IMG/VR virus record: IMGVR_UViG_3300044677_000044
Coordinates: 33,019 to 97,018 of that record
DNA from: a virus
Length of the DNA: 64,000 nt
Reading direction: 5' to 3' (one strand)
Every line of letters starts with the position of its first letter. Positions within the stretch are counted from its first letter, which is position 1. Made by a program: the position numbers and the translations under genes. Positions 16,592 through 51,902 of this stretch are shown here, in pieces. A model generated the notes under the pieces. That model was not told the origin of the DNA, made no database searches, and saw only the letters and a list, made by a program, of their open reading frames with translations.

Positions 16592-16592
16592 G

Positions 16593-21549: not shown

Positions 21550-21552
21550 GGC

Positions 21553-21810: not shown

Positions 21811-21814
21811 GGGG

Positions 21815-22539: not shown

Positions 22540-22540
22540 G

Positions 22541-22930
22541 TCAGGCCGCCTTGGGCTGGCTGGTGTGGACGGGCTGCCCGCTGTCGCTGGTGAGCGGCTC
22601 TTCGTCTACGAGGGTGTAGGTCTTGCCGCCGTCGGTGGACATGGCGCGGGGGTCGCGGACGTTTTGCCAGAACGGATTGCCGCCCATCTCCTGCGCCCGG
22701 TCGATCCACTCGGCGGGGTCGTCCGTGAGCGGAGTCAGCGGGCGGTAGCGGAGCAGGTGGTTCAGGTAGTCGGCGGCGATGGGAGCGGAGCCTCCGCTGT
22801 GTCCCATGTCCGCGAAGGCGGCGACGACCTTGCACAGGCCGTCCACGATCCAGGGGTCTTCGCCGCGCAGGGTGAGTTCACGGCGGGCGTGGTCAACGAG
22901 GGGGCTGTCGGTGGTGGTGGCGGTGGCCAT
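22541..22930 (-). CDS. Conserved hypothetical phage protein
   Basis: HARRELTL...FADMGHSGGSAP...PLTPLT motif seen in many phage proteins. Confidence 0.7.
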   Translation of the reverse strand: MATATTTDSPLVDHARRELTLRGEDPWIVDGLCKVVAAFADMGHSGGSAPIAADYLNHLLRYRPLTPLTDDPAEWIDRAQEMGGNPFWQNVRDPRAMSTDGGKTYTLVDEEPLTSDSGQPVHTSQPKAA

Positions 22931-22948
22931 GGGCGCGGGCCTTTCCGG

Positions 22949-32116: not shown

Positions 32117-32636
32117 TAAGGGGGTGCGGTCCGGGCAAGGTTGATCGTCACCCCAGGGAGCGGTTTGTACTGCCTCCGGTCCGCTTCAGGGGCCTGCCGG
32201 GTGCCGCGGCCGCCACCCTGCGCGGCCGCGGGCCTGCGCGTGCCGGGTGGGCGGCGGGGCGGGCGGTGCCGGACTGGGTCGCGGGGTGCTGCGGCTTCGG
32301 CCAGCTGAAGTGGGATGCCGCGTGCCGCGCGGTCTGCCGCGCTGCCGGGCTGGTGCGTGCGGCCCGGTGTGTGCGGTGGGGGGTGGGTGTGTGGGCCCCG
32401 GTGTCAGGTCCGGGGTCCACACACCGTGCCGGGGTGAGCAGTCCCGGCTGCGTGCGGCGCTGTCCCGGCGCCCGCACGCGCTGTTGGGCGGCCCGGGTGA
32501 TCACAGCATGGGGTTGCGGTGATCGTTCCGGTGGGTGGAGTGGGCCCGGGCCGCTGCCCTGATGGTGGGGTGGGGGTGCGGGGCTGTCCACCGTGTTCTG
32601 CCCCGAGTCGGGTTGCGGTGCTGGTCAGGGCTGGGG

Positions 32637-33029
32637 TCAGGCGAGGATCAGTGCGGCGATCGCGAGCGCGGTGATGTGCGCGGTCTGGTCGACGTGGGGG
32701 GCTCCGCCGCGGGTACGGAAGTCGGCGGACCCGGTGTTGTCCATCCACCAGGCGACCGGCCAGCGGCGGTCGATGAAGCCGTGCGAGGCGCCGATCCAGG
32801 CGAGCGCGATGGCGGTACGGGCCGCGGGGAGGTGCACGCCGTTCAAGACGGCGGCACCGATCGTGAGGGCGACCGCGCAGGTGACGACGTGGGTTGCGGC
32901 GTGGGTCAGGTTGGCCCACCAGCCGGCGCGGCCGGGCTCGGACTTGAGGATGGCCTGCCGGTCGGTCTGGATGGCGTAGTCCGCGATCAGGTGGGCGACG
33001 TAGAGCAGGACGAAAGCGGTGGCGAACAC
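32637..33029 (-). CDS. DUF3307 family membrane protein (plasmid spread/transfer-associated)
   Basis: HLIADYAIQTD...HAATH...SHGFIDRRWP...VDQTAH motifs; GTG 33029. Confidence 0.8.
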   Translation of the reverse strand: MFATAFVLLYVAHLIADYAIQTDRQAILKSEPGRAGWWANLTHAATHVVTCAVALTIGAAVLNGVHLPAARTAIALAWIGASHGFIDRRWPVAWWMDNTGSADFRTRGGAPHVDQTAHITALAIAALILA

Positions 33030-33114
33030 GAAGGGTCTCCAGGTTGGGTCGGGTTGGGGATGAAGATGCCCCGCACGCTGGCGGGGCTCTTCACGCGGTG
33101 CTGCGTGGGGTGGG

Positions 33115-33747
33115 TCAGTGGCCTTGCTGGGCCGCGGTGTGCCCGGCGGCGGTGAGCAGGGCGGTGGCCTGGTCGGCGGTGCGGCCGGGGGCACGGTTCC
33201 ACGGGCCGATGAGCTCGGTCCATCCCTGTCGGCGGAGTTCGGACAGGACGTAGGTCGCGGAGCGTCCGGCGGTGGTGTGGGAGCCGTAGCCGAGGCGTTC
33301 GGCGGCGAGGATCGCCCCGCACACACATCGGGCGCCGCCGAAGGACCGCAGCCGGTAGGGCTCGTTCTGCCAGCCCCATTCCTCGAGCACGCGGGCGGCG
33401 TAGCCGAGTTGCACGGACGGCTTGAGGTCGGGTTGGTAGAGGCGGCGCCAGGTGTGGAGGCGGTCGGGCACGAGGGCGGCGATACGGCCGGGGAGTTGCC
33501 GGTCGGCGGGTGCGGGGCCGAGGCGGACGCCGGCGTCGGCGATGAGCTGTTCGGTGGTGCGGGTGAGGAGCAGGCCGGGGACGTCGGTGACCAGGTCGGC
33601 GCCGTCCCCGTTCGGCTTGTTCTCCGGGCGGCCGGTGGGGGCCGGGGTGGTGGTGTGCCAGCCGTCGACCATGGCCTGCCAGGCCGCCGTGTCGTAGAGC
33701 ACGGCGGCCTGCTGGTCGAGCAGGTTGGGGTCGAGGCTGGCGGTCAC
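33115..33747 (-). CDS. DUF6197-like hypothetical protein
   Basis: AARVLEEWGW...GARCVCGAI...PWNRAPGRT motif common in Streptomyces plasmid/AICE transfer regions. Confidence 0.6.
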   Translation of the reverse strand: MTASLDPNLLDQQAAVLYDTAAWQAMVDGWHTTTPAPTGRPENKPNGDGADLVTDVPGLLLTRTTEQLIADAGVRLGPAPADRQLPGRIAALVPDRLHTWRRLYQPDLKPSVQLGYAARVLEEWGWQNEPYRLRSFGGARCVCGAILAAERLGYGSHTTAGRSATYVLSELRRQGWTELIGPWNRAPGRTADQATALLTAAGHTAAQQGH

Positions 33748-33753
33748 GGGGGT

Positions 33754-33954
33754 TCAGGTCTCCAGGTCGTTGTCGGGGCGGGTGGTGGGCGGTTCGGGCC
33801 GTCGGCCGAGGCCGAAGGGGGTGCGGAGTCCGGCGGCGCGTAAGGCGCGGCGTAAGGGCGAGTTGCGGATCATGCGGTCGGGGTCGAAGCGGATGTATCC
33901 GGGCCGCTCGTGGTCGTCGTGGTCGTCCGGGGGCGGCGGTGTGTGCTGGGGCAT
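33754..33954 (-). CDS. Small hypothetical protein with two TTA codons
   Basis: 66 aa; in-frame TTA at 33853-33855 and 33841-33843 (SP-L-RRA-L-RA). Confidence 0.55.
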   Translation of the reverse strand: MPQHTPPPPDDHDDHERPGYIRFDPDRMIRNSPLRRALRAAGLRTPFGLGRRPEPPTTRPDNDLET

Positions 33955-33968
33955 GGTCGTGGTCCTGG

Positions 33969-36209
33969 TCAGGTGGTGCGCTGGTACACGCCGCGGCTGA
34001 GGGGGGTGACGCGGCCGGCTTCGTGGAGTTTGGCCATGGTGTTGTTGACGCTGCCGGGGGCGAGGCCGGGGAGGGCTGCGCGGACGTCCTTGATGGCCAT
34101 GGGGCCGTCGGCGAGGACGGTGAGGATCCGGTCTGCGACGGCGCCGGTGTCGCTGGCGGCCGCGGGGGTCTCAGCGAGGGTGTCTTCGTCGACCTGGTCG
34201 GTGTCGCCGTCGGGGTCTTCTCCGGCGAGGAGGTCTTCGGCGTGCTGGAGCCAGTAGGCGTAGGACTCCTGGAAGACGCGGTGTTCGTCGGGGCTCAGCG
34301 TCGGGATGGGGGCGCTCTCGTAGAGGGCAATGAGGCCGGGGAAGGTCTTGTTCTCCTTGCGGGCGCCGAAGGTGCGGGCGAGGAAGAGGCTGCCGCCCTG
34401 AATGATGTTGGCCATACCGGCGGTGATCGGCCCGTTCTCGACGTCCTTGCCTTCGAACGCGGCGTCGATGTCGCTGACGGACTTGAAATAGCGCGGGATG
34501 GGTTCGAGGATGACGCCGGGCGGGAGGACACCGTCGGCGGCCATGTGCTGGGTGGTGGAGGAGTTCACGCGGCCCAGCCACACGGTGCCGTTCTTCGCGT
34601 TGGCCCGGATGCGTTCCTTGTCGCCGAGGTCGGCGAGGTGGATGGACTGGGCGGCGAAGCGGATGCCCTCGCCGAGCTTGCGGCCGGTGGCCTGGGTGTC
34701 GCCGACCAGGCCGGTGACCCACTTGCGGAACGGCCGGGGCACGGTCGCTTCGGACGACAGGATCCGGTTGAGCTCGTCGAGGGTGACGTTGACCAGCCGC
34801 CACGGCTTGCCAATCTCGAAGGACCCCCAGCCGTTGGCGGCGCTGATCTTCTCCCGGTACTTGGCGAGGTCGTTGGCGGCGGCGAGGGTCGCGCCGGTCG
34901 CGGCGATGCCCTTCCCGAAGTGGTACACGCGGCCTTCGGCCTCGGGCAGGCTCATGCCGTCCTGCGCATCGGCGACGATCGAGACGATCCCGGAGATCCG
35001 CTCCGCGGCGAGCATCGTGTTGAGGGTGACGGACTTGCCCGCGCCGGGCGCGCCGGCGAGCAGGTCGGTGATGGCTCCCATCTGGGGGTCGTAGAGCGGG
35101 ATGCGGGCCGGGCGGCCGTCGGGGCGCAGGCCGATCTGGATGGTGCCGTCCTCAGCCATGGTGAGGTCCGCGACGGTGGCCTCACGGACCTGAATGAGCG
35201 GGTGGTTGCGGTACACGGAGATGACACCGTCACCGAGGCCGTCGGTCTCGACCATCAGGAGGCTGGCGTCCTTCATCCCGAACGCTCTGGCGAGCTGCTT
35301 CTGCGGGAGGAAGATCAGCTGGTTCTCGGGGGCCTGGACGCGCAGCACGATGCGGTTGTCTTCGACGCGGTAGCCGGTCAGGGCCATGCCGGGGGCGGCG
35401 CCGGTCGGCCCGGAGACCTTGTCCTCCCACAGGGTGTGCATCTTGTCCTGCTGGGCGCGGGCGGCGTCGGCGAGGGTGGGGGTGGCGATGAGCCGGCGCC
35501 GTCCGGGCCCGGACCCGGGCACCGCCTCCAGACGCACGGATCCTTCGGGCATGTCGAACGCGGCCGCGAGCGCGGTGGCGTTGAGCGCGGGCACCGCCCG
35601 GCCCTTCTGTGCGACGACGACGGCTTCGAAGTCGGCGCGGCCGTGCTGGTACTGGCGGATCGCGGTGAGCTTCGTGCCGGAGGCCATGCCCGCGGCGGAC
35701 GCGGTGTCCCACTGGCGGGCCAGGTACTCCTCGTAGGTGCCGGCCTGGCCGGTGGCCACGGCCAGGGCCGCCACGGGGGTGGGCGAGGGCAGTTCCAGGG
35801 TGAGGTGCGCGGCCCGGGTGACGGGCGCCATCCAGCTCATGAGGGCGCCCCAGGCGGTGGCCGCGGCGATCTCCCACCACGGCGTGCCGGGGTTGACGAG
35901 GTTGGTGAGGTACAGGCCGGCGCCGGTCAGGACGGGCAGGCACCGCTGGCACGTCACGACGAACCCCTCGTGGTCGCCGGCGCGGTTGCTGGCCTTGTCG
36001 TACAGCCACGCGACGGTCCCCACCGCGGTGGCCGCGGCCGCGGCGTGGGCGGGCCACGCCGCGTGGAACTGCGGGGCGATGGCGATACCGGCGGTGGCGG
36101 CGGCGTACGCGAGGCGTTCGCGCTTGACGCGCCGGTGGATGACGTGGCCGGGAACGGGCTCGGCCTGGGCGGCGGGTGCTGGGGTCTTGGCTTTGTCGGT
36201 GACGGCCAC
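33969..36209 (-). CDS. traB: TraB-like FtsK/SpoIIIE conjugative DNA translocase
   Basis: N-terminal TM segments, Walker A LAGAPGAGKS, Walker B VTLDEL, C-terminal winged helix (LPGLAPGSVNNTMAKLHEAGRVTPLSRGVY). Confidence 0.85.
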   Translation of the reverse strand: MAVTDKAKTPAPAAQAEPVPGHVIHRRVKRERLAYAAATAGIAIAPQFHAAWPAHAAAAATAVGTVAWLYDKASNRAGDHEGFVVTCQRCLPVLTGAGLYLTNLVNPGTPWWEIAAATAWGALMSWMAPVTRAAHLTLELPSPTPVAALAVATGQAGTYEEYLARQWDTASAAGMASGTKLTAIRQYQHGRADFEAVVVAQKGRAVPALNATALAAAFDMPEGSVRLEAVPGSGPGRRRLIATPTLADAARAQQDKMHTLWEDKVSGPTGAAPGMALTGYRVEDNRIVLRVQAPENQLIFLPQKQLARAFGMKDASLLMVETDGLGDGVISVYRNHPLIQVREATVADLTMAEDGTIQIGLRPDGRPARIPLYDPQMGAITDLLAGAPGAGKSVTLNTMLAAERISGIVSIVADAQDGMSLPEAEGRVYHFGKGIAATGATLAAANDLAKYREKISAANGWGSFEIGKPWRLVNVTLDELNRILSSEATVPRPFRKWVTGLVGDTQATGRKLGEGIRFAAQSIHLADLGDKERIRANAKNGTVWLGRVNSSTTQHMAADGVLPPGVILEPIPRYFKSVSDIDAAFEGKDVENGPITAGMANIIQGGSLFLARTFGARKENKTFPGLIALYESAPIPTLSPDEHRVFQESYAYWLQHAEDLLAGEDPDGDTDQVDEDTLAETPAAASDTGAVADRILTVLADGPMAIKDVRAALPGLAPGSVNNTMAKLHEAGRVTPLSRGVYQRTT

Positions 36210-36266
36210 CGGGGGTTCTCCTTGCAGAGTCAGCGGATCGTGGGCAGGCAGTAGACGGGACGGGGG

Positions 36267-36833
36267 TCAGCGGACGCGGTTGAAGCCCGGCTTGGGCTGG
36301 CGGACAGCGGACGCCTGCACGGCCTCGTACACGCCGCGGTTCTCGCTCTCGTGGGCGTCGTTGAAGCCGCGGGCGTGGGTTTCCATCACGTCGGCGGTGT
36401 CGGCGAGTTCCCCGGAGGCGTTCGCGACCCTGCGCAGGGCCTTCGACGACTCCATGATCAGCGCGGTGTACTGGGGCTCGACTTCGGCGGCATCGCACAT
36501 CTCCGACAGCGTCTGGGCCTTGCCCGCGTTGTCCTCCATGTGGCGCTGCAGCGCCCACGCGTTCTCCTTCAGGCGCAGCGCCGCGGCGGACAGGGCGGTG
36601 ACGCGGGCGGCCAGCGTCAGGAAGTTCACCACTCCCACGACGGCGCCGGCGGCCGTCGCCCCGGCAGTGCGGGCCGGCCGGTCCGCGGGAACGGGGGCGT
36701 TCTCCTGCCCGGCCCCCGCTGCGCCCGCGGCGGCGGGTGCGGGCTGCGGGCCGCCAGCGGCCGCCCCGTTCGGGGTGGCAGGGGCGGGCGCGTTGGCGGG
36801 GACGGGTTCGATGCTGCTCACGGTGTTCCTCAC
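36267..36833 (-). CDS. Conserved helical protein of Streptomyces transfer regions
   Basis: Ala/Pro N-terminus plus about 100 aa amphipathic helical hairpin; coupled to the upstream gene. Confidence 0.65.
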   Translation of the reverse strand: MRNTVSSIEPVPANAPAPATPNGAAAGGPQPAPAAAGAAGAGQENAPVPADRPARTAGATAAGAVVGVVNFLTLAARVTALSAAALRLKENAWALQRHMEDNAGKAQTLSEMCDAAEVEPQYTALIMESSKALRRVANASGELADTADVMETHARGFNDAHESENRGVYEAVQASAVRQPKPGFNRVR

Positions 36834-38860
36834 GTCTCGTTGTGGGCGCGCGCGGACGGCACGGTCAGGCCGGCGTCGGCGGTGGCCTGGGTGATGGGCC
36901 GGTACGCGTCGTTGAGGGCGTTGTCCGCGGCCTCCGTTGTCTCCGCGGCGTGCAGGGACTCGGTCTGCATCTCGTCGGCCTTGCGGGCGAGGATGTCCAT
37001 GGACTCCGCGAGGCGGACCATCGCCGATGTGGTGAGCACGCCGATGACGTTGTTGGTGACCGCCAGGTCCACGGCCAGGTTCTCCAGACGCTCCCGCAGC
37101 CTGCGGGCCCGGGCGGCCAGGCGCACGCTGTCGTCGTGGGTGCTGAAGCTGTCCCGGGTGAGGTCTTCCAGCACCTCCAGGGCGTCATCGAGGCTGACTT
37201 CCGTTTCGTGCTGGGCGTCCATCGCGGGCACGCGGCGGCTCTTGGCGGGCACGGACATGGGGCGCGGCTCCTTACTGCGGGTGGGCGTGCTGGGGGCGGC
37301 CGGGGCGCCCGGCATGGGCCGGGGACGGCGGGTACCGGGCCGGCGGGTGTGCGGGACGGGCGCCGCGGGCAGCGCAGGCGCGCCGGCACCGATCCCGGCC
37401 GGCTCGCGCCAGTGCCGCTCCTGGTCACCGACGTTGTCGGTGCGCTCGACGGTGGTGGTGTAGCCGCCGGCCGCCGTAGCGGAGGCCATCCCGGCTGCCT
37501 CCCACGGCGTTTGGCGGGTGCCGCCGCCGGTGAACCCGGCGCTGGACGACCCGGCCGCACCACCAGGTGTGGCACCGGCGGTGGTGCCGGGACGGCCGGT
37601 GTGTGCGGTGCGGCGCTTGTCCCAGTAGGAGTGGGCGCGGGTGCGGGCCTTGCCCCAGTAGCCGTTGGCCCGGTCCTTCTTCTTCCACTTCATGTCCTGG
37701 GCCTTCTTGGTCGACGGCCTGGACGTGCCGCCCGCGGCCCCGCCCGGCTTGCCGCCCGGGCCCTTGCTGTTCCGGTTCTTCCTCGTGTTCGTGGTGCTCA
37801 CGACCGGGGTGAGGCGCTTGCGGCGCTTCTTCAGGCGCCGCGCGGCTTCGTTACTGACCGCCCCGGTGAGCGTGGTGCGCTCCGCACCGTTCTTCTTGGT
37901 CTGCTTGTCGGCGGCCGCCGGGCTGTTCTTGGACAGCCGGTCCTTCTTCGCGGTCTTCTTCTCCAGGTCGGCGCGCTTCTTCTTCGGCGAGCGGAGCGTG
38001 CCCTTGTCCAGGGAGGTGCCGCGGGGCGACTTCGTCCGGCGGTCGCGCCGGGTCAGGCCCAGGCGATCCGTCGTGGTCCCCTTGGGATCCTTCGCACCGG
38101 GCTTGTCCTTGCGGTCCTTGCGGTCCTTGGTCTTGGTGGCGCCGCTGCCGCGCTGCGACGGGGCGAGCACTCCCCCGCCCCGCTTGCCGCCGTTCTTCTT
38201 GTCCGTGGAGCGGTTGTTGCGCTGGGTGCGCGCGCTGTCGGTGCCGCCGCTCTTGCTGTTGTTCTTGCCGGGGGTGTTCCTCCCGCCGCCACCGCCCCCG
38301 TTCTTGGGACCGCTGGAGTGGTGGCCGCCGCTGGTACCGCTCGAGGTGCGGCGCAGGGACTGACTGCCGAAGTCGTGGCTGGAGGGAACCCGCCGCGTGG
38401 ACCTACTGCTGCTCCCGGAGCCGGCCAGGCCCTCAACGGTCTGCCGGTGCTCCCGGTGCTCGCGCCACGCGGTGACCGCGGAGTGGATACCGCGCAGCGC
38501 CGCCACAGCCACCGCGAGGGCGACCGCCAGCGACAGGGCACCCAGTTGCGCGCTGTGCGCGGGCCTCGAGGGCTCGGCCCGGAACGTGTCGGGAACGACC
38601 CCCGGCGCGGGCGGGGCCGGCGGAGTGATGACCGGGTCGGCCAGGCCGGGCTGGGCGAGCGCGGCGATGGTGTCCATCGGGGACCGGCGCCCGCCCGTGG
38701 CGGGTGCCGCATCCCCAGCAGCGGTTCCTGCCGGGCCGGCCGCCGGCGGGAACATCGGCGCGACCGGAGCACCCGGCGCGACCGGAGCGGGCCGGGCGGG
38801 GGTGAGGTCGAACCCGATCCGGGGGAAGTTGATCACGTTGTTGTCATCGTCGCGGTCCAT
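36830..38860 (-). CDS. Large low-complexity protein with one TM segment and C-terminal helical domain
   Basis: 676 aa; TM LSLAVALAVAVAAL, Lys/Arg-rich middle, acidic helical C-terminus. Confidence 0.65.
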   Translation of the reverse strand: MDRDDDNNVINFPRIGFDLTPARPAPVAPGAPVAPMFPPAAGPAGTAAGDAAPATGGRRSPMDTIAALAQPGLADPVITPPAPPAPGVVPDTFRAEPSRPAHSAQLGALSLAVALAVAVAALRGIHSAVTAWREHREHRQTVEGLAGSGSSSRSTRRVPSSHDFGSQSLRRTSSGTSGGHHSSGPKNGGGGGGRNTPGKNNSKSGGTDSARTQRNNRSTDKKNGGKRGGGVLAPSQRGSGATKTKDRKDRKDKPGAKDPKGTTTDRLGLTRRDRRTKSPRGTSLDKGTLRSPKKKRADLEKKTAKKDRLSKNSPAAADKQTKKNGAERTTLTGAVSNEAARRLKKRRKRLTPVVSTTNTRKNRNSKGPGGKPGGAAGGTSRPSTKKAQDMKWKKKDRANGYWGKARTRAHSYWDKRRTAHTGRPGTTAGATPGGAAGSSSAGFTGGGTRQTPWEAAGMASATAAGGYTTTVERTDNVGDQERHWREPAGIGAGAPALPAAPVPHTRRPGTRRPRPMPGAPAAPSTPTRSKEPRPMSVPAKSRRVPAMDAQHETEVSLDDALEVLEDLTRDSFSTHDDSVRLAARARRLRERLENLAVDLAVTNNVIGVLTTSAMVRLAESMDILARKADEMQTESLHAAETTEAADNALNDAYRPITQATADAGLTVPSARAHNET

Positions 38861-38982
38861 GGGCCACCTCCTTCAGAGTTGACAGACAGTCACGGAATGG
38901 GCGATCCTCGCGCGCGCACGTCGCGCGCGCACCTTGGGCGCATCGTCACCGCGTTTCGCGGTGATGATGATGACCACACTCA

Positions 38983-39195
38983 TCACTCGGCGTAGCGCTT
39001 GTAGAAGTCGTGCAGGTGGTCCGCGAGCTTGCTGTGGGCGTCGGGCTGGCCGTTGTTCGCGGCCTGCTTGGCGACCATCCGGCAGGCGTCGAACCACACC
39101 GTCACGACCTCCTCCGGCGTGGTGGCCGCGGCCTGGCGGGCGTTCCAGTGCGCTGCCTGGTTCGCCCGCCGCCGCTCGGCACTGATCCGCTTCAC
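38983..39195 (-). CDS. Small hypothetical protein
   Basis: 70 aa, overlaps the traA stop by 4 bp. Confidence 0.65.
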   Translation of the reverse strand: MKRISAERRRANQAAHWNARQAAATTPEEVVTVWFDACRMVAKQAANNGQPDAHSKLADHLHDFYKRYAE

Positions 39196-39734
39196 CGCTG
39201 GCCCTTCGCGAAGAACTCGCCGATGCCCTCCGGCGACCAGTCCTCGCCGCCGGCCGCCCGCCCGAAGCCCATCGACGGCGCGTCCAGGTACTGCGGCTCC
39301 TGCTGCTGCCCGCCGCTGGCCTGCGGGTTTGCCGCATCACCGGCCAGGAACCGGGTCGACTTGTCCAGCGACTTCGCCACGAACGCGCCCTTGGCCACGG
39401 CCCGCTGCTGCTTCCGGGCCGCCTTCCGCTCCGCGGTCACCGCCCGGCGCTCCGGCAACTCCAGCACGTGGTGCTTGTACGTGGCGTACAGCGCCTCCGC
39501 ACTGGCCGCGGCCTTCTCCGAGGCGCGCTGCATCCGCTTCATCTTCCGGGCGACCTTCCGGGCCCGCCGACCTGCGGCGAAGGGACGGTCGCCCTCGATC
39601 GGGGTCTGCTTCAGACGGCCCTGGATGATCTGACCGATCTGCCCGTACTGGCGGCCAGCCTCCATGTGCTGGTCCCGCTCGATGTCGGTGAACTCCCTCA
39701 GCCCGTCGTCTGTGAACAGGGCGTCGACGTTCAT
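39192..39734 (-). CDS. traA: Plasmid transfer protein TraA family
   Basis: ATG 39734 with GGAG RBS; IQGRLKQTPIEGD...RARKVARKMKR...AAASAEALYATY resembles Streptomyces plasmid TraA. Confidence 0.7.
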   Translation of the reverse strand: MNVDALFTDDGLREFTDIERDQHMEAGRQYGQIGQIIQGRLKQTPIEGDRPFAAGRRARKVARKMKRMQRASEKAAASAEALYATYKHHVLELPERRAVTAERKAARKQQRAVAKGAFVAKSLDKSTRFLAGDAANPQASGGQQQEPQYLDAPSMGFGRAAGGEDWSPEGIGEFFAKGQR

Positions 39735-39823
39735 GGTGGTACTCCTCTCGCGATCGGATGCTGTGCGTTTGTGCAGGTCAGGCAGTGTTGCGCTGGTGGT
39801 GGCGGGGTGGACTGCGTGACCGG

Positions 39824-40036
39824 TCAGGACCGGCCACGGCGGCGGCCGCCGCCGGACGAGTTGCGGTACCCGAACGGGCCGGGCAGGTCCATCGAGGTCG
39901 TACGCCGGCCGGTGGACGAGGTGGTGTAGTGCGGGCCGCCGTGCTTCCGGCCGAACGTCACCGACCACGACTTCGCGTTGATGTTGAGGCGGACGAGCGG
40001 GAAGATCATGAAGGACTTGCGGAACGTGATCGGCAC
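39824..40036 (-). CDS. DUF4236 domain protein
   Basis: MPITFRKSFMIFPLVRLNINAKSWSVTFG...TTSMDLPG motif. Confidence 0.8.
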   Translation of the reverse strand: MPITFRKSFMIFPLVRLNINAKSWSVTFGRKHGGPHYTTSSTGRRTTSMDLPGPFGYRNSSGGGRRRGRS

Positions 40037-40054
40037 GGTGTTTCTCCTCGGAGA

Positions 40055-41293
40055 TCAGGCGGACTTGAGGTTGCGGTACTCCCGAACGAGCCGGGACGCG
40101 GTGGGCTTGGAACGGCCGAGCGCGTCGGCGATCGGCTGCAACGGGAGCTTCTCGTCGGGCCCGTTCCACTCGTCGACGAAACGGCTGACGATGTCGAGCT
40201 GGGCGTTGCGGTCGATCGGCGTTGCAACGGACCCAGTCGTTTCACGGGGCGTTGCGGCGGGGCGGGTTCGGGGCGTTGCGTTGCGCGCTGCGCCGCCCAT
40301 TGCGCGCTGCGGGGGGGCCGTTTCACCCATTGCAGGGGTGGCGGGGCGTTGCGTTGCGGAAGCCGTTTCACGGTCCGTCGTGGAACGCCCGGGGAGCGTT
40401 CCACCGACCGTTTCGCTGGGGACTGTGGAACGGTCGGGAAGCGTTGCACTGACCGTTCCACGGGGCGTTGCGGCCGCCGCAACGGTGTCGCGTGCAACGG
40501 CCGTTTCACGGCTCACATCCGTTGCGGAGGCCGTTTCACCGGAGACCGTTTCGCTCTTCCGCAGGTCGTTTCGGGCGGCCGTTGCGGCGACCTTCTCAGG
40601 GTGCGTTTCGGTGATGCGGTGGACGCGCCAGACGATGAGGGGGGCGATGGCGGCGACCAACACGATCAGCCACCACTGCGTGGTCCACGTCTCGTGGTGC
40701 GGCCGGCCAGTCTTGGTGACGCCCACGAGGTGAGCCTCAGCGAGGTGAAGGAGCGCGTTGGTGGCGATCATGAGGATGAGGGCGGCGGCCACGTCGCGGT
40801 GACGGCGCATGGCCTGGATGACGTAGACGTCGATCGCGGTGGGCAGCGCCCAGGCGATCGAGGAGGGGAAGCCCACCATCCTGGCGAGGCCGTACTCGCC
40901 CGACGCGGTGAGGCCGACTGCGGCGAGGAGCGCGATCCAGGGGCCGACACGGTCGAACAAGGGCTTCTTGTCCGGCGCCTGCGCGGTGGTCTTGGTGGCC
41001 GGCCCGGCGGGCGCCGTGGTGGGGCGTGCGTTGGCGGTCGCGGGCCGGGCCGGCCGGGTGAACACGGGCGGCGCAGAGTCGACGGCGGCCGCCTTGACTT
41101 CGGCGATGGCGACCTGGCTCTCGTAGTGGGCCAGGCCCGCCTCGCGGAACGTCGTCGGAGCGGGCGCCGTGGTGGTGGTCGGCGGGAGAGTTATGGCGGG
41201 CAGCCCCGAGCCGCTGGGGTGCGGTGCTCTCGCGGCCGGCATCGCGGCCTCGGGCAGCGGCCGGGCCGTGGGGGCGATCGGGGCGGTGGTCAC
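40055..41293 (-). CDS. SpdB/DUF2637-like multi-TM spread protein with repeat linker and C-terminal HTH
   Basis: GTG 41293; about 4 TM segments (GPWIALLAAVG...AWALPTAIDVY...), ET/AT-rich linker, PIADALGRSKPTASRLVREY HTH. Confidence 0.7.
   Translation of the reverse strand: MTTAPIAPTARPLPEAAMPAARAPHPSGSGLPAITLPPTTTTAPAPTTFREAGLAHYESQVAIAEVKAAAVDSAPPVFTRPARPATANARPTTAPAGPATKTTAQAPDKKPLFDRVGPWIALLAAVGLTASGEYGLARMVGFPSSIAWALPTAIDVYVIQAMRRHRDVAAALILMIATNALLHLAEAHLVGVTKTGRPHHETWTTQWWLIVLVAAIAPLIVWRVHRITETHPEKVAATAARNDLRKSETVSGETASATDVSRETAVARDTVAAAATPRGTVSATLPDRSTVPSETVGGTLPGRSTTDRETASATQRPATPAMGETAPPQRAMGGAARNATPRTRPAATPRETTGSVATPIDRNAQLDIVSRFVDEWNGPDEKLPLQPIADALGRSKPTASRLVREYRNLKSA
40204..40609. 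repeat. Array of about 27 CGTTBC cores (11 full CGTTBCAC 8-mers) in both orientations
   Basis: Manual count: 22 plus-strand and 5 minus-strand cores; CGTTTCAC at 40238, 40319, 40364, 40502, 40532. Confidence 0.85.
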
Positions 41294-42003
41294 GGGGATC
41301 GGTGTCCTTCCGAGTTGAGGCGGGTGGTGTGTGGGCGGGTCAGGTGAGGTTGTGGAGCGGCGGGTTGGGCAGACCGGCGTGCGCGGCGATCTCGTCACCG
41401 GTGAGGCGGGTGGCGCGGACCAGGTACGGGGCGACAGTGAGGATGCGGTGCCAGTGCAGGCTGAGGGCCTGGTCCGCGAGGGCGTGGAGGTGGGCGTAGT
41501 CGTAGCCGTCGCCGCCGCCGAAGGTGACGCGGGGCTGGACATCTGCGGCGAGGATGACGCCGCGGTCGCGGTGGGCGCCGACCTCGGCGACTGCGGCGCG
41601 CTCCTCAGTCCACAGACCGGTTTCGCGGAGCCAGCGGTCTTCTGCGCGTTCGCCAGCGGCGAGCCCGACAGCGCAGCCCAGGCCAGCGTGAGGCGGGACG
41701 GGGCCGCCCGTAGCGATTCCTTCCTCGGTGCCGATGGCGGCGTCGACCACGTGGATGCCCGCGGCCATCCACAGGACGGCGTGGGCGAGTTCGTGGACGG
41801 CCTGCGCGGTGCGGGCCTGATCGGCGGCGAGGCCGACGGTGCGGTGGTCGAAGTACGGGAGGTCCGCGAAGTGGTCGGGCAGGACGTGGCGCAGCGGGTA
41901 AGGAGTCCCGTCGGGCAGCGCGAAGCCGTGGTGCCAGGTCACAGTCATGGCGGCTGAGGCGGTGGTCACGGGGATCGGTGTCCTTCCGGGTTGAGGCGGG
42001 TGG
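41282..42003. repeat. 46-bp direct repeats (1 mismatch) at 41282-41327 and 41958-42003
   Basis: GGCGGTGGTCACGGGGATCGGTGTCCTTCCG(A/G)GTTGAGGCGGGTGG; each copy contains the RBS, GTG start and first codons of adjacent genes. Confidence 0.9.
41340..41969 (-). CDS. HExxH zincin-like metallopeptidase domain protein
   Basis: AVHELAHAVL motif, ...LAAGERAE... third-ligand-like segment. Confidence 0.55.
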   Translation of the reverse strand: MTTASAAMTVTWHHGFALPDGTPYPLRHVLPDHFADLPYFDHRTVGLAADQARTAQAVHELAHAVLWMAAGIHVVDAAIGTEEGIATGGPVPPHAGLGCAVGLAAGERAEDRWLRETGLWTEERAAVAEVGAHRDRGVILAADVQPRVTFGGGDGYDYAHLHALADQALSLHWHRILTVAPYLVRATRLTGDEIAAHAGLPNPPLHNLT

Positions 42004-42019
42004 GGTGGGGGTTGGCGGG

Positions 42020-42634
42020 TCAGGAGGCCGTGCCGCCGAACGTGATGGTGGTCGGCTTCTCGAACTGCGGGACGATGATCTGCATCGAGCCGGAGGCGTC
42101 CTGCTCCTGCTGCGCGAGCGCGATGCGGACGAACGCGGTCTGGAGGCGGCTGATGGTCTCGGCGACATCGCCGCCGACAACCGGGTACGCGGCCAGGTAC
42201 AGGCGGGTGGCGAGCTCGGCCAGAACGGCCGGCTCGGACTGGTGTTCCACGAGCTGGTCCAGGACGTGTCCGAAGGCGTCCTCCCAGTCCTCCGATCCGC
42301 GGGTACGGAACTCCAGGTTCTCCGCGACCGAGGCCGACGCGAGCAGCTGCAGGAGCTCCGAGGTGTCGGCGCAGACCTGGGTGATCTCCTGGTCCTCCCG
42401 GGTGACGTTCCAGCCCTGGGCGTACGCGTCGCCCATCTGCTGCTCGAGCACGGCGAGGCCCGACAGGAGCCGGGCCCGGGTGTGCGGGTAGCGAGCCTTG
42501 GGGCCGTCGAGGAGGTCCCAGACGGTCGCGGCCTTGTCGGCGAGGGTGAAGTAGATCCGGCGGCCGTCGCGGACGATGCTGCCGGGCCGTCGGGCGGCGG
42601 CCTCCTGGCGGAACTGGGCGAGTCGGATGTTCAT
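42020..42634 (-). CDS. Hypothetical protein
   Basis: 204 aa, AAGGAG RBS. Confidence 0.65.
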   Translation of the reverse strand: MNIRLAQFRQEAAARRPGSIVRDGRRIYFTLADKAATVWDLLDGPKARYPHTRARLLSGLAVLEQQMGDAYAQGWNVTREDQEITQVCADTSELLQLLASASVAENLEFRTRGSEDWEDAFGHVLDQLVEHQSEPAVLAELATRLYLAAYPVVGGDVAETISRLQTAFVRIALAQQEQDASGSMQIIVPQFEKPTTITFGGTAS

Positions 42635-42697
42635 GCGGTGTGGTGCTCCTTCGGGATCGAGATCGGCGGGTGCGGGTTGGTGCGGTGGTTGGCGGGG

Positions 42698-42874
42698 TCA
42701 GGCGTTGCGGACGTCGGCCGGGGTGACGCCGGCGGCGATGGCCCGGTTGACGGTGGTGACGACCGCGTCCGCGGCCTCCTGCGCCTCCTGGCTGTCGGGC
42801 CCGTAATCGCGGACGACCTGTGCGGTCACCGCGATGGCGTCCGTACCCGCCTGGATCGTCGGGTGGCTCGTCAT
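42698..42874 (-). CDS. Small hypothetical protein
   Basis: ATG 42874 with AAGGAG RBS; 58 aa. Confidence 0.6.
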   Translation of the reverse strand: MTSHPTIQAGTDAIAVTAQVVRDYGPDSQEAQEAADAVVTTVNRAIAAGVTPADVRNA

Positions 42875-43115
42875 GCGAGTGGTGCTCCTTCGAGGTCGGG
42901 TTGGTCGGTGTGTCTGGTGGTTCTCCTCACCGGCCAGCAGGTGCTGGTACTCGCCGGTGAGGACAGCCGTCAGGCTGCGGTAGGGGTGCGGGCCCGGCCG
43001 GTCGGACGACCGGGCCCGCGCGCCAGGCGGTCTGGGGGTCAGTCGTCGTCTTCGGGCCTGATCGGGTCGTCGTCGTGGCCGTCGTCGCCACACCAGTCGC
43101 AAGCGGTGATCACCT

Positions 43116-43268
43116 TCACCACCCCCTGATCTGCATGCCGAGGCGGTGCGCGTCAGGGTCGGTGAGGTCGGACGGCGGGGCCGGCACGACCACGGGCTCA
43201 GCGGCAATCACACGGTCCAGGTCCTGATCGGCCTGGCTGCGCTGCACGGGAACCTGCTGGTCACTCAC
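43116..43268 (-). CDS. Small hypothetical protein (50 aa)
   Basis: Manual translation MSDQQVPVQRSQADQDLDRVIAAEPVV...MQIRGW*; GTG overlaps the upstream stop. Confidence 0.4.
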   Translation of the reverse strand: MSDQQVPVQRSQADQDLDRVIAAEPVVVPAPPSDLTDPDAHRLGMQIRGW

Positions 43269-43711
43269 TGCTGGCCCCCGTCCTGTTCGGCGTACGGGTC
43301 GGTGCGGGCGGACAGCTCCGCGACCAGGTCACGGGGCGCGGTGGTGTCCAGGTCGACCGCGACGGCCGCGCCGATCCTGCGGACGTCCATCGCGGTGTCG
43401 TGGTCCAGGTCGCGCAGGCACGGGTTCGCCTCAAGGTCCGCGAGCCGGGCGATCGCCGCGGCCAGCAGGCCCTGGACGTCGTTGCCGTCCAGGTCGCCGG
43501 CGAGCGCGCTCATCAGGGTCTGCGTCTCATCGAGCGACAGGCGCTCGGTCATCAGCAGCCGGAACCCGGCGCGGATCTGGTCCAGGCCCGGGTGGATACC
43601 CGACAGGCTGTCCAGGAGGTCCTCGTGGCGCTCGGCCAGCGCCGGCACCGCGTTGCCCGCGGTGTGCACATACCCGGCCGGACCGGCCCCGGTGATGCGG
43701 TGAGCACCCAT
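43265..43711 (-). CDS. Hypothetical protein
   Basis: 148 aa, coupled to neighbours. Confidence 0.65.
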   Translation of the reverse strand: MGAHRITGAGPAGYVHTAGNAVPALAERHEDLLDSLSGIHPGLDQIRAGFRLLMTERLSLDETQTLMSALAGDLDGNDVQGLLAAAIARLADLEANPCLRDLDHDTAMDVRRIGAAVAVDLDTTAPRDLVAELSARTDPYAEQDGGQQ

Positions 43712-44265
43712 CAGGCACCCGCCGACACAACAGAAACCGAACCAGCAGACACCTGCGCGTTGCCGTGCGCCCAGAACGTGGCATCGTCCGCGGCCAGCAA
43801 CTCACTGGCCGGTACCGGCACCATCTGCGCGTTGTACCCGTCGATGAACGCCGGGGTGCTCCCGGCCCGGTGCGCGACGTGGCCACGGGCGACCGTGCCG
43901 TACACCGTGACCCGCACGCCCTCAATCAGCAGCGGGTTCACCATGCGGACGGTGTCCGGGCCCATCGAGACCATCGCGCTGTTGCCGTCGTCCGAGCTCA
44001 GGACGACCATCACGCGGCCGAACCGGCCCGGGTCGAGGTGACGGACCCGGGTGATCGTGCCGGTCGCGGAGATCTGCGTGTCGGCCGCCACATCACTCAG
44101 CGGCTCGGACACGCGAGCCTTCAACAGGCTGTCGTAGTGCTCGACCACGAGATGGCCGGGCATCGGGGTGGGCGTGGGCTTCGAGGTCCCAGCGATGGCG
44201 CGCGTGACGCGCTCATTCGACGGGTGGATGGTGCTGGTCTGCACCGTGTCTGTACGATCCGACAT
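43711..44265 (-). CDS. OB-fold-like protein, first gene of the transfer operon
   Basis: ISATGTITRVRH...MVVLSSDDG...EGVRVTVYGTV beta-barrel pattern; GGAGG RBS. Confidence 0.55.
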   Translation of the reverse strand: MSDRTDTVQTSTIHPSNERVTRAIAGTSKPTPTPMPGHLVVEHYDSLLKARVSEPLSDVAADTQISATGTITRVRHLDPGRFGRVMVVLSSDDGNSAMVSMGPDTVRMVNPLLIEGVRVTVYGTVARGHVAHRAGSTPAFIDGYNAQMVPVPASELLAADDATFWAHGNAQVSAGSVSVVSAGA

Positions 44266-44411
44266 CAGGATCGGCCTCCTGTTATGGCAGGTAGGGCGGT
44301 TCGCTGGGTCCTACGGGCCCCGATAGGTCCGGGTGTTCGAGCACCTGGGCCTTTCGGCTTTTTGGCCGACGTAGTCCCCGGCTGTCGTTGCGTATTGCTC
44401 CGACTCGGCCT

Positions 44412-44460
44412 AATGTAGAGCACTACACACGGAAGAGCAAGCACTACATGGAGCACTACA
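44412..44460. promoter_or_regulatory. Leftward promoter overlapped by three AGCACTACA boxes (putative Kor/TraR operators)
   Basis: Boxes at 44419, 44440, 44452; minus-strand TTGCTC (44440-44435) - N17 - TACATT (44417-44412). Confidence 0.7.
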
Positions 44461-44476
44461 TATGAAGGGAGGGAAG

Positions 44477-45208
44477 ATGAGCGAAAAGGCTGGCTACGCC
44501 AAGATCGCCGCCCACTACCGGGAACTGATCGCAGATGGCACGCTCGCTCCGGGCGATCGGATGCCGTCCATGAAGGTCGTCTGTAAGAAGTTCAACGTCG
44601 CGATCACCACAGCCAACCGAGCCTTCCGGATGCTCAAGTCGGAGGGGCTCACGGCGGCCTTGCCCGGAGTCGGGACAGTGGTTGTTGACCGCCCTCGCGT
44701 GGCTACAACGGCCGCCGCGCGACTGGACAGGCTCTCTCGCACGGGAAGGGCGTACGCGAGCAAGGAGACGTCCGAACGGCACAAGGTCTCGCTCCGGTCC
44801 TGCGCGGATCCGGAGCTCGCCACTGATCTCGATATTGATCTACACGATGAGATCGTGTTCCGCACACGGGTGTTCCTGAAGGACGGCACGCCCACGGTGG
44901 TGGCCATCTCCTGCATCAACCTGCGGGCGCTGATCGACGTGCCGGAGTTGCTCGAGCCGAGACCGCTCCCGCGGTTCTGGCAGGAGATCTACACCGAGCG
45001 CACCGGGCGCACGATCACGAAGTCCCCGGAGCGGCGTGGTGCGCGGATGGCTGCCGACGACGAACTGGATGCGCTGGGTATCTCCGTGCCGTCAGGAGCT
45101 GCCGTGCCCGTGCTGGTCCTCGTGAACGTTTTTCACGATGAACAGGGCCCCATCGAGGTGTGGGAGGACGTCTACGCCCCTGGTCTGTGGCAGGTGGCCA
45201 CCGAGTGA
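44477..45208 (+). CDS. GntR/HutC-UTRA transcriptional repressor (KorSA/TraR-like)
   Basis: YAKIAAHYRELIADGTLAPGDRMPS...TANRAFRMLKSEGL wHTH plus UTRA domain; divergent from the transfer operon. Confidence 0.9.
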   Translation: MSEKAGYAKIAAHYRELIADGTLAPGDRMPSMKVVCKKFNVAITTANRAFRMLKSEGLTAALPGVGTVVVDRPRVATTAAARLDRLSRTGRAYASKETSERHKVSLRSCADPELATDLDIDLHDEIVFRTRVFLKDGTPTVVAISCINLRALIDVPELLEPRPLPRFWQEIYTERTGRTITKSPERRGARMAADDELDALGISVPSGAAVPVLVLVNVFHDEQGPIEVWEDVYAPGLWQVATE

Positions 45209-46563: not shown

Positions 46564-47925
46564 ATGAGCGACGCTGAGAACGTTGTACCCGTCGAGCTGT
46601 ACGGCCCCGACGATGGCGGCTGGTACACCACCCGTGTGCACGACTGGATCGGCCTGTGCCCGGAACTCCGTGATGCCGAGGTCCGGGGCTATCTGATCCT
46701 GCGGTCCCTGGTGATCGAGAAGTACAAGAACCCCGTACGGAAGCTCGCCCTGGACGACCTCTGCGCTCTCATCCCCGGGCCCACGAAGGGACAGCCGAGC
46801 AGCCTCACGCGCGTACGTGGAATCCTCGCCGGCCTGTCCGCCGTGGGCCTGGTGACTACTCCGGAGGGCCTGCCCGTCAAGACGTCATCCCGCCCTGCAG
46901 CTGCAGGGCGGCCCATCCGACTCCGCATCAACGACATGCCCACGAAGGGCTACTCGGGGTGGCGGAACACCGAGGACAAGCTGTCATCCATCTCCCGGGA
47001 GGACGCCGAGATGTCGGCGGGTCGGATTTCCGACCCGGACCAGAACGAGGGCGGTGCAGGTCAGGGCGGGGGGCGGTTTACCGACCCGCCGGGTCGGAAA
47101 TCCGACCCCGGGGGTTGGATTTCCGACCCGGAACCGCCACCTGACCTGCCGGAACCCGAAGTCCCTCTGGTACCTACTCTTGGTATGACCGGTGGAGATG
47201 CGCCTTCGGCGCGTAGCGTCGTGGACGGCCGGAGGCCTTCTGACGGTAGTAGCGCGCGCGAGGGTGAAGGCGGCTCCGCCGCGTCCAGCAACGACAGCCC
47301 CTCCTCCACTCAGGAAGACGGCCCAGCGCCGCGCCGCGCCGGGCGGAAGAGCGCAGCAGCACGGCACACCCGGGATCAGTTGCAGCAGGCGCAGCGGGTT
47401 CTTCCGTACTTCCCTGCGGAGTTGGGCGTGAGCCTGGTGCCGGCGCTGACGCAGGCGATCCTTGATGCGCTCGCGGGCGACTGCCCGGGGGCGGATCGCA
47501 CCGCGGCCCAGCTCGGGGTGCGGATTGAGCGTCGGTGGGGCCAGCACGGTTACGCGGCGAAGCACTACGCCGGGACACTGGACAGCCCGGTGGGCGCGGC
47601 GATCGGCATGGTCCGGCCGCTGAAGGCCGGCGACCGGTACGGGTGTGCGAACCCCAGGTGCGAGGACGGCGCCGACGTCGACACCGGCGAGGCGTGCACA
47701 GTGTGCCCGGAGCGGCTCGCCGCGCGACGGGCCGCACGCCGCCAGGCGGCCGCTGTGCCGCCTCCGCGGCCGCCTGCGGCATCCACACCCGCCAGGGCGC
47801 CCGGCGGGTTCCGGGAATGCCCGTGCGGGGATCCGCTCGCGAGGGCCAGCACCGACACCCTGTGCCAGCGGTGCCGAGCGCGCGCCGACTCCCCTGCGGG
47901 GCAGGACGTCCTGGCGCCGTTCTGA
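46564..47925 (+). CDS. Replication initiator protein (wHTH N-terminus, Zn-binding C-terminus)
   Basis: N-terminal wHTH-like region, low-complexity middle carrying iterons, C-terminal CANPRC/CPC..CQRC; lambda O-like organisation. Confidence 0.75.
   Translation: MSDAENVVPVELYGPDDGGWYTTRVHDWIGLCPELRDAEVRGYLILRSLVIEKYKNPVRKLALDDLCALIPGPTKGQPSSLTRVRGILAGLSAVGLVTTPEGLPVKTSSRPAAAGRPIRLRINDMPTKGYSGWRNTEDKLSSISREDAEMSAGRISDPDQNEGGAGQGGGRFTDPPGRKSDPGGWISDPEPPPDLPEPEVPLVPTLGMTGGDAPSARSVVDGRRPSDGSSAREGEGGSAASSNDSPSSTQEDGPAPRRAGRKSAAARHTRDQLQQAQRVLPYFPAELGVSLVPALTQAILDALAGDCPGADRTAAQLGVRIERRWGQHGYAAKHYAGTLDSPVGAAIGMVRPLKAGDRYGCANPRCEDGADVDTGEACTVCPERLAARRAARRQAAAVPPPRPPAASTPARAPGGFRECPCGDPLARASTDTLCQRCRARADSPAGQDVLAPF
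47019..47129. repeat. Four 18-bp palindromic iterons GGGTCGG-W4-CCGACCC (putative replication origin)
   Basis: 47019-47036, 47070-47087, 47091-47108, 47112-47129; the last three at exact 21-bp periodicity. Confidence 0.85.
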
Positions 47926-47992
47926 CCGGTGTCGTTGGCCTGGTTGGGGCGACTGGCCATCTCCACAGAGCAGAGAACGAAAGGATGTGCCT

Positions 47993-48802
47993 GTGACTGA
48001 TATCGAAGAGTTCGGCGCCTTGCACCTGAAGTGGGCGGACACGGATGATCAGGGATTCTCGTACGTCAATGACCTGGTCGGCTCGGCAGAGCAGGCTGGG
48101 GATGATGCGCATGAGCCGGTCGACACGCTGGCGCTGGCGTGCACAGCGGCGTTCGCCAGTACGGCTCTCGGGAAGGCTCTCGACCACGAGTGGGCGCTTT
48201 ACACGCCGCAGGATGCAGCCGTGGTTGCCTCCGCCATCCAAGCTCAGGTTGCGACGACCGCTGACAACCTGCGCAAGCTCATCCGGGCGGTTGAGCACAT
48301 CGCGGAGCGTGGCGAGGTCGAACTTCCTGAGGTGTCTGGGCTGGACGGTCCAGAGGAGGAAACCCTCTCCGACGCCCTGGACCAGATCAGTGAGGTGGCC
48401 GGCCAACTGGGGGAGGTCGTTACGGCGATGCACCCCCTGGTGCCCTCTCTGCACCGGGCGGCCTCGAAGTTCCGGCCCAGCCCTAACCTCCACTCGAACC
48501 TGCGTGCCGTAGTCGCGCTCCTCGGCGAGGGGGCGGAGATGAATGAGCACCAGCACGATGAAGACCACGAGGAGAGCGGTTGTACCGCGGTCATCACCCG
48601 CGGTTCCGAGACCTATTACTTCGGCTACATGGACTCAGAATGGACCCTGTTGCGAGATGGTGATGCGGAACATCATTCCGACGGGTCGAAGTTCTGGATC
48701 AACGGCGGGAGCGTCACGATCGAGGCAGGTGAGGAACTGGCGCACCCTCACCAACTCGCACAGGAAGTACGGCAGGCCATCGGCGATCCCGAGCCATCCT
48801 GA
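47993..48802 (+). CDS. Acidic hypothetical protein
   Basis: GTG 47993 with AAGGA RBS; 269 aa. Confidence 0.7.
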   Translation: MTDIEEFGALHLKWADTDDQGFSYVNDLVGSAEQAGDDAHEPVDTLALACTAAFASTALGKALDHEWALYTPQDAAVVASAIQAQVATTADNLRKLIRAVEHIAERGEVELPEVSGLDGPEEETLSDALDQISEVAGQLGEVVTAMHPLVPSLHRAASKFRPSPNLHSNLRAVVALLGEGAEMNEHQHDEDHEESGCTAVITRGSETYYFGYMDSEWTLLRDGDAEHHSDGSKFWINGGSVTIEAGEELAHPHQLAQEVRQAIGDPEPS

Positions 48803-49594: not shown

Positions 49595-49680
49595 GCGCTG
49601 ATCCTGCCACCCCGGGGCCGGGTCAACGGCGGTGTGCGGGCGCCCTGTTGCGGGGTGGGGCGGGCACACTCGGCACAGTA

Positions 49681-49730
49681 AAATGATTGCGCATGTAGTC
49701 ATTTAACGGTAGGGTGGGGGCCACACCAAG
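49681..49730 (+). promoter_or_regulatory. Early promoter/operator copy 1
   Basis: TTGCGC (49687) - N17 - TAGGGT (49710); AAATGA-N12-TCATTT inverted repeat over -35; 47/50 identical to 51853-51902. Confidence 0.8.
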
Positions 49731-51744: not shown

Positions 51745-51827
51745 GCCGGGGTGGCGCAACGGCGACGCAGCCGCCTTAAAAGCGGTCGCCCCGCGAGGGG
51801 TTGCGGGTTCGAATCCCGCTCCCGGCA
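51745..51827 (+). tRNA. trnL-UAA: tRNA-Leu, anticodon UAA (bldA-type, reads TTA)
   Basis: Acceptor GCCGGGG/TCCCGGC, D-arm GCG..CGC with GG, anticodon stem GCCGC/GCGGT, loop CT-TAA-AA (51777-51779), long variable arm CCCC-GCGA-GGGG, T-arm GCGGG-TTCGAAT-CCCGC, discriminator A, no encoded CCA. Confidence 0.92.
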
Positions 51828-51852
51828 CAGATGGAGCCCGCCAAGATGGGTT

Positions 51853-51902
51853 AAATGATTGCGCATGTAGTCATTTAACGGTAGAGTGGGGACTACACCA
51901 AG
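51853..51902 (+). promoter_or_regulatory. Early promoter/operator copy 2
   Basis: TTGCGC (51859) - N17 - TAGAGT (51882); TTAAATGA..TCATTTAA 8-bp inverted repeat. Confidence 0.8.

Follow-up and report, generated by a model that had tools for sequence, protein, structure and literature searches.

A 12.6-kb region (32637-45208) of a 64-kb stretch of viral DNA probably constitutes the native tra-spd operon, together with its divergent regulator, of a 98-kb phage-plasmid of soil Streptomyces of the pZL12 kind. The stretch analyzed (the window, to which coordinates refer unless stated otherwise) spans bases 33019-97018 of the 98,334-bp IMG/VR virus record IMGVR_UViG_3300044677_000044, which is labelled 'linear' and has a CheckV completeness of 91%. 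pZL12 (phage ZL12) is described, in the passages of later papers that cite it, as a Streptomyces plasmid-phage (Zhong et al. 2010, J Bacteriol 192:3747; PMC4487206; PMC3583192; PMC7157519). The combination of particle and transfer genes is already known from pZL12, and the element described here is a further member of this group with a different particle module. An earlier note on this DNA had proposed a pZL12-like phage-plasmid with tra genes; this is supported by gene content, by a gene order shared with relatives, by a ParB gene accompanied by a weak ParA match, and by the lack of hallmarks of actinomycete integrative and conjugative elements (AICEs). As the sequence of pZL12 was not at hand, comparison with its lineage was made through pSLE1, which is published as highly homologous and syntenic to pZL12, phage particle genes included (PMC4487206). 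Lists of open reading frames (ORFs) are useless at the G+C content of the window (70%), and genes were therefore called by third-position G+C (GC3), with frame plots settling ambiguous stretches; 119 proteins were called in the record.

The operon runs as one unit from 44265 to 32637 on the minus strand and includes the gene for a major transfer protein (33969-36209), a TraB-type FtsK-like double-stranded DNA (dsDNA) translocase of 746 aa composed of N-terminal helices, a motor with the Walker A motif GAPGAGKS and a C-terminal winged helix-turn-helix (wHTH). Its identity to SCP2 TraX+TraA, which carries the annotation of major transfer protein in that plasmid, is 47-50%. Plasmid records with a homologue number 203 and come almost exclusively from Streptomyces, and dozens of homologues are found on Streptomyces contigs of 85-112 kb, several of which are labelled plasmid; a metagenome scan added just four more relatives. 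The top Foldseek matches of a structure model built on 20 homologues (pLDDT 76) are the FtsK motor domain (6t8o, 2ius) and TcpA, the coupling protein of pCW3 (E ~1e-12; TM by target ~0.6). This fold search was needed for the FtsK assignment, because a profile of the TraB homologues compared with PDB sequences recovered the wHTH alone and not FtsK. In the model, the wHTH is made up of helices at residues 688-730 and a hairpin after them; a match to the wHTH of RPA32 is obtained with the family profile (E 0.006), and relatives carry a wHTH-protein annotation. Four long helices, which might form a membrane anchor, are modelled in the N-terminus (residues 21-127), none of them above a Kyte-Doolittle threshold of 1.6. 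Identity to the SCP2 protein and the motor fold together uphold the FtsK-like TraB named in the earlier note.

Two genes beside traB have counterparts in SCP2. The first encodes a 188-aa homologue of the accessory transfer protein that is called TraB in SCP2 (36267-36833, minus strand; 56% identity over 100 aa), and the second a 676-aa counterpart of SCP2.23c (36830-38860, minus strand) that combines a single membrane helix with an extended basic region rich in Gly, Lys and Ser and with a conserved coiled part at the C-terminus; its last 127 aa are 56% identical to SCP2.23c and 61% identical to relatives. Transfer of SCP2 and pZL12 requires the major tra gene along with two genes next to it (PMC3583192), and homologues of SCP2 TraX/TraA, TraB and SCP2.23c lie side by side in the element. 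Further upstream in the operon is the gene for a SpdB-like membrane protein of 412 aa (40055-41293, minus strand), comprising a helical membrane core (residues ~112-248; pLDDT >90), a disordered Thr-rich linker and a C-terminal three-helix HTH (pLDDT 96). It has a weak HTH_23 match and 355 homologues were found. The model resembles AFDB clusters named DUF2637 (E 2e-10 to 6e-4) and DUF2637 clusters of the ESM Atlas (TM 0.34-0.45 by target); we take DUF2637 to be the family of SpdB2-type spread proteins. The SpdB-like label of the earlier note holds by fold of the model and not by sequence, with Pfam DUF2637 matching nothing in the record at E values up to 1 and none of the 42 proteins tested among the 355 homologues.

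Divergent from the tra operon lies a GntR/HutC-type regulator (44462-45208, plus strand; Pfam GntR 1.1e-12, UTRA 6e-8), an analogue of TraR/KorA that confirms the divergent GntR gene of the earlier note. It is 58% identical to the N-terminus of SCP2.35 and 38% identical to the GntR protein of pSLE1, and its translation probably begins at the ATG at 44477, which follows a GGGAGGG ribosome site. The 196-bp divergent regulatory region (44266-44461) contains three direct copies of the 9-mer AGCACTACA at 44419-44460; three of the four exact copies of AGCACTACA in the 64 kb fall within it, and the triplet is a candidate operator.

With its FtsK-like Tra protein, Spd-like genes and GntR repressor, the region resembles the transfer regions of AICEs, and a tyrosine recombinase is encoded elsewhere in the record; the module could in principle be an independent AICE, or a small conjugative plasmid, inserted into a prophage. 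Against this, RepSA (PF20199), an HTH_17 excisionase and a serine recombinase were not found anywhere in the 98 kb, in line with the earlier note, which had reported no rolling-circle Rep, integrase or excisionase nearby. The only tyrosine recombinase lies outside the window at genome positions 21239-23113, ~44 kb from the operon (PF00589 matches are confined to 19.4-23.1 kb of the genome), and is 75% identical to the backbone integrase of pSLE1. The att-like direct repeats with an integrase that the earlier note named as evidence for an inserted AICE were sought, and neither a repeat pair bracketing 32.6-45.2 kb nor an adjacent integrase was found. Two pairs of repeats were considered as att sites and rejected: the 63-nt pair at 41273 and 41949 is a duplicated ribosome-site/start region, since each copy contains GGAAGGA and a GTG start, and the 53-nt pair at 49678 and 51850 is a duplicated promoter-operator-like region. 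There is also no compositional step at the 32.6-kb border. Most tellingly, relatives carry the same module at the same place: pSLE1, an 87-kb plasmid of S. seoulensis and a 68.5-kb JGI contig (L024) share an order that begins with a nuclease gene and small genes and proceeds through the regulator and a tra operon with TraB at its end to terminase, capsid and tail, and L024 repeats the operon tail exactly (TraB, 66-aa gene, DUF6197, DUF3307), which points to a native operon. The insertion of an independent element is already largely refuted and scarcely credible, and it is likely that the module is both what it is proposed to be and native to the element.

The phage side of the element is formed by a virion module on the minus strand, the in-window part of which (3463-19668) was delineated by PHROGs matches. 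These include the tape measure (3463-7932), tail tube (8830-9450), capsid (13590-14540), portal (16593-18008) and a 549-aa large terminase (18019-19668), in addition to neck and adaptor proteins, chaperone, scaffold, protease and two glycosyltransferase-like genes; tail proteins, a tail spike and an endolysin follow directly left of the window. At the level of gene content, the set of a tailed phage (a siphovirus module) appears soundly complete, and the earlier note's description of a complete tailed phage is supported by these morphogenesis and lysis genes and by the CheckV estimate. The virion genes are akin to those of Streptomyces prophages and, more distantly, of Arthrobacter phages. Near relatives of the portal (75-81% identity) reside mostly on large Streptomyces contigs, presumably as integrated prophages, and on metagenome contigs, two of which match the element across the entire packaging-head-tail block (60-88% identity). 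No close relative of the portal was present in any Streptomyces plasmid of PLSDB; PLSDB has ~35 Streptomyces plasmids of 85-94 kb with a pSLE1-type capsid. In a 92-kb contig that has this virion module too, genes for a distant TraB (24% identity, ATPase core) and a SpdB protein (Pfam HTH_SpdB_C, precomputed) lie upstream of the late genes. Operons of the tra-spd type and virion modules are therefore found together repeatedly, with different lineages of each, as expected of ordinary modular exchange. In another relative of the virion module (L016 7316-9979; JGI contig Ga0495629_0000069), the large terminase measures 887 aa, as against 549 aa here, and a weak LAGLIDADG match in it suggests an intein or homing-endonuclease insertion.

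Given that the record stems from an assembled virus collection, and that its backbone and virion module differ in their nearest relatives, it could be a metagenome assembly chimera of a pZL12-type plasmid and an unrelated prophage. However, a pSLE1-like backbone flanks the virion module collinearly, the endolysin and integrase genes lying to one side and the tra genes and GntR to the other, so that a chimera would need two precise junctions at the borders of the module. The 92-kb contig, which likewise combines this virion module with an upstream tra-spd operon, also speaks against an artefact, and we regard a chimera as very improbable. Further backbone genes outside the window are collinear with pSLE1 and encode ParB (a clear match), a weakly matched ParA, WhiB, a C5 methylase, an HTH protein and the integrase. 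On the pSLE1 circle, the regions matched by the two ends of the record are neighbours, as would fit a nearly complete circular or permuted genome.

If the region is the native operon of a phage-plasmid, its operation can be outlined by analogy, every step being drawn from homologous plasmid systems. In the plasmid-prophage state, the GntR/UTRA regulator would repress the divergent operon in a kil-kor arrangement. On derepression, the 746-aa TraB-type motor would assemble at the membrane and use its C-terminal wHTH to dock on an array of repeats in the element, the best candidate for which is a cluster of ~25 8-mers in the spdB-like gene. The motor would then drive the 98-kb replicon, as double-stranded DNA and without processing, into an adjoining hypha, aided by the two adjacent SCP2-type genes, and the SpdB-like pore protein and small Spd-like proteins would spread the DNA across septal cross-walls. 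The siphovirus module of the replicon could, in addition, package it, giving the element a dual mobility, as a virion and by capsid-free dsDNA transfer or intramycelial spread. We infer regulation, docking site, actual transfer and plasmid state from these parallels, and consider it rather probable that the module functions in transfer.

The same genes might mainly serve the phage, with TraB and Spd proteins moving replicating or newly injected phage DNA within one mycelium, before lysis or during lysogeny, and no mating taking place between mycelia. In keeping with such a role, the operon heads a ~50-kb run of genes on one strand that reaches into the late genes, and the 92-kb contig that shares the virion module has a TraB of another lineage and a SpdB gene upstream of late genes, indicating that phages of this type keep acquiring or retaining such modules. 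However, the operon has its own divergent repressor, as in conjugative plasmids, and pZL12 is cited, in the relevant passage of PMC3583192, as transferring via its tra genes. Phage-serving and mating functions are not mutually exclusive, and a mainly phage-serving module is an unlikely alternative to a conjugative one.

The candidate docking array lies inside the linker of the spdB-like gene (40136-40630) and consists of ~25 copies of an 8-mer, GYGRAACG on the coding strand, also occurring as CGCAACG. The 8-mer family has 25 matches in this interval, compared with 0.4 expected per 500 bp; 12 of the 15 window sites of CGTTBCAC fall within it, and most copies share one orientation. In the array stretch GC3 drops to 0.60-0.67, with 17-23% A-ending codons, from 0.87-0.97 in the rest of the gene, which points to selection on the DNA. 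Each relative examined has a word of its own in the same part of its spdB-like gene: GAGACC in L024 (~30 copies), CGAAGC in L021 (21-27 copies), GATGCG in L002, L013 and L022 (12-17 copies) and GGCTCA in pSLE1. The clt loci of different plasmids hold 8-bp repeats that are read by the cognate TraB (PMC4447253). The recognition helix of TraB covaries with the repeat word, differing slightly between relatives; the C-terminal HTH of SpdB covaries too and differs strongly. Covariation of helix and word was considered as a means of deciding the binding partner and fails, as the SpdB HTH covaries as well. The array could quite plausibly be a clt, that is, a set of TraB docking repeats, a reading to which we give somewhat less than even weight; a binding array for SpdB is a tentative second candidate, and other explanations take the remainder. 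It is conceivable, if doubtful, that the linker arrays act as specificity determinants, such that the TraB/SpdB of each phage-plasmid moves only its own DNA.

The stronger variation of the SpdB HTH suggests that the array may belong to SpdB rather than TraB, and this is one of several points that weigh against a pZL12-type phage-plasmid with a TraB operon in working order. At the sequence level, the TraB-like protein falls below the Pfam FtsK_SpoIIIE gathering score (16.6 vs 24 bits) and has no NCBIfam match. As regards the plasmid state, terminal repeats are absent from both the record and the window, the ParA match reaches only E 1e-4, and no replication initiator was recognized by family match. 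The virion proteins gave no match to pSLE1 at E 1e-5; they are therefore not of the pZL12/pSLE1 lineage, and regulation may have been upset if modules were exchanged recently.

The remaining genes of the operon are all on the minus strand and for the most part lack NCBIfam and PHROGs matches, and several of them are joined by start/stop overlaps of 4 nt, an arrangement described for spd operons (PMC4447253). The first gene (43711-44265, 184 aa) has counterparts leading the operons of pSLE1 and L015 (37-45% identity), and is followed by a conserved gene of 148 aa (43265-43711; 43-44% identity in pSLE1, L013 and L015) and a 50-aa ORF called by GC3 (43116-43268), the start of which overlaps the stop of the upstream gene by 4 nt. 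Next are a 204-aa gene with no family match (42020-42634; GC3 0.95) and a 209-aa gene (41340-41969) flanked by the duplicated 63-nt unit. The copies of this unit (41273-41335 and 41949-42011) each carry the ribosome site GGAAGGA, the GTG start and first codons V-T-T-A, and precede two successive operon genes. Between the spdB-like gene and the SCP2.23c counterpart lie a DUF4236 protein of 70 aa (39824-40036; PF14020 2.6e-15, 54 bits, match at 39863-40027; frame plot), a TraA-like protein in the naming of pSN22 (39192-39760, start approximate; frame plot) and a conserved 70-aa gene (38983-39195; 41-47% identity in L002, L013 and L015) that is translationally coupled to its neighbour. The TraA-like gene is 35-47% identical in L002, L013 and L015; the earlier note had called it TraA, and a match to NCBIfam NF041213 exists (1.5e-7) but is sub-threshold, at 31.6 bits against a cut-off of 80.

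Downstream of traB, a conserved gene of 66 aa (33754-33954) is followed by a DUF6197 protein of 210 aa (33115-33747; Pfam 2.8e-16), found at the same position in L024, and by a DUF3307 membrane protein as the last gene of the operon (32637-33010; Pfam 2.3e-10; frame plot), which has a 130-aa counterpart in L024. The start of the DUF3307 gene is approximate, because the long ORF, extending to 33326, overlaps the DUF6197 gene. Both the DUF3307 and DUF4236 genes listed in the earlier note are matched by Pfam within the operon. Two TTA codons occur in the conserved PLRRALR motif of the 66-aa gene, where the L024 homologue has CTC/CTA; all called genes of the 98-kb record together contain just seven TTA codons. 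The ~520 bp that separate the operon from the next gene (32117-32636) are very rich in G+C at each of the three codon positions, and no coding frame stands out in them.

The surroundings of the operon depart in part from the earlier note, which had placed the module between the late genes and the replication initiator. Some 12 kb of other genes, including a sugar-modification block, separate the operon from the terminase, and the putative initiator, a 453-aa ORF (46564-47925, plus strand), has no family match; the ORFs at 46564-48802 have none in NCBIfam or PHROGs. Homologues of this 453-aa ORF, one of them with HTH_36, are present on dozens of Streptomyces contigs of 85-112 kb and are 50-66% identical to it; the ORF is possibly a family marker or a replication protein. 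The other candidate initiator is the HTH protein beside parAB, which matches a pSLE1 gene. A 53-nt promoter-like unit occurs twice (49678-49730 and 51850-51902; 92% identical). In each copy a small palindrome, AAATGA...TCATTT, is succeeded by TAGGGT or TAGAGT, and both copies precede rightward gene blocks, one of which ends in a tRNA-Leu(UAA) gene (51745-51827). This tRNA is the only one with Rfam support, and an ARAGORN call of tRNA-Lys(CTT) at 4209-4290 on the plus strand, opposite the tape-measure gene, is therefore probably false.

The element offers a well-delimited example of a TraB operon that may be a stable backbone part of Streptomyces phage-plasmids and combinable with unrelated virion modules. 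If the proposed mechanism is correct, a tailed phage would have at its disposal a regulated, capsid-free means of spread within and between mycelia, alongside infection. Two horizontal routes would bear on the movement of cargo among soil Streptomyces, in this case a virion-glycosylation block and a UUA-reading tRNA. The repeat arrays further provide a concrete docking-site candidate for transfer systems of the SCP2 type.

Among known systems, SCP2 of Streptomyces coelicolor provides the closest described counterpart of the operon, with a transfer region consisting of traA/traX, traB, SCP2.23c to SCP2.32c and the GntR gene SCP2.35. Beyond the identities of the major transfer protein and of the two adjacent genes, SCP2 shares a large membrane protein at the same operon position and the divergent GntR gene. 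In contrast to the element, it is a 31-kb plasmid without phage genes, and its small upstream genes are not detectably similar. By described features, pSVH1, with its TraR, SpdB3-Spd79-SpdB2, TraB and clt, resembles the element in having a hexameric motor that is FtsK-like and ends in a wHTH, a repressor of the GntR type, coupled spd genes, a pore-type membrane protein and short repeats, which serve for docking in pSVH1 and are a candidate docking site in the element (PMC4447253). Unlike in pSVH1, the candidate repeats of the element are situated inside the spdB-like gene and number ~25.

The closest tra operons are those of the 87-kb plasmid of S. seoulensis KCTC 9819 (NZ_CP032230) and of the IMG/VR or JGI contigs L013, L015 and L024, the TraB proteins of which are 62-67% identical to that of the element. 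They have the same gene order, including the 66-aa, DUF6197 and DUF3307 genes, as well as capsid and terminase genes, but in contrast to the element their virion module is of the pZL12 type and follows directly after the operon, and their repeat words are GATGCG or GAGACC. In L024 (Ga0616357_000097), an HTH_31 regulator replaces GntR; its gene and one with an ABM domain (1873-3461) take up the divergent slot that GntR occupies in the element, pSLE1 and SCP2. The nucleotide sequence of the module retrieved three weak plasmid matches and zero phage matches, and with the TraB proteins of the element and pSLE1 as queries, neither a TraB relative nor pZL12 was retrieved from the GenBank phage records of the phage collection searched.

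The comparison with pZL12-like elements suggested by the earlier note shows a common backbone and order alongside distinct virion genes. pZL12 and pSLE1 resemble the element as replicons of ~90 kb in which parAB (ParA of the element being a weak match) and a transfer locus of the SCP2 type are combined with a full tailed-phage module, and in the succession of a GIY-YIG-type nuclease, small genes, GntR, the tra operon and packaging, head and tail genes. pSLE1 shares 19 of the 119 proteins of the element, all of them backbone proteins, collinear and 25-75% identical. The two differ in TraB, which is just 26% identical, and share no virion genes; the ~12 kb ahead of the terminase and the tRNA-Leu(UAA) gene further set the element apart from pZL12 and pSLE1.

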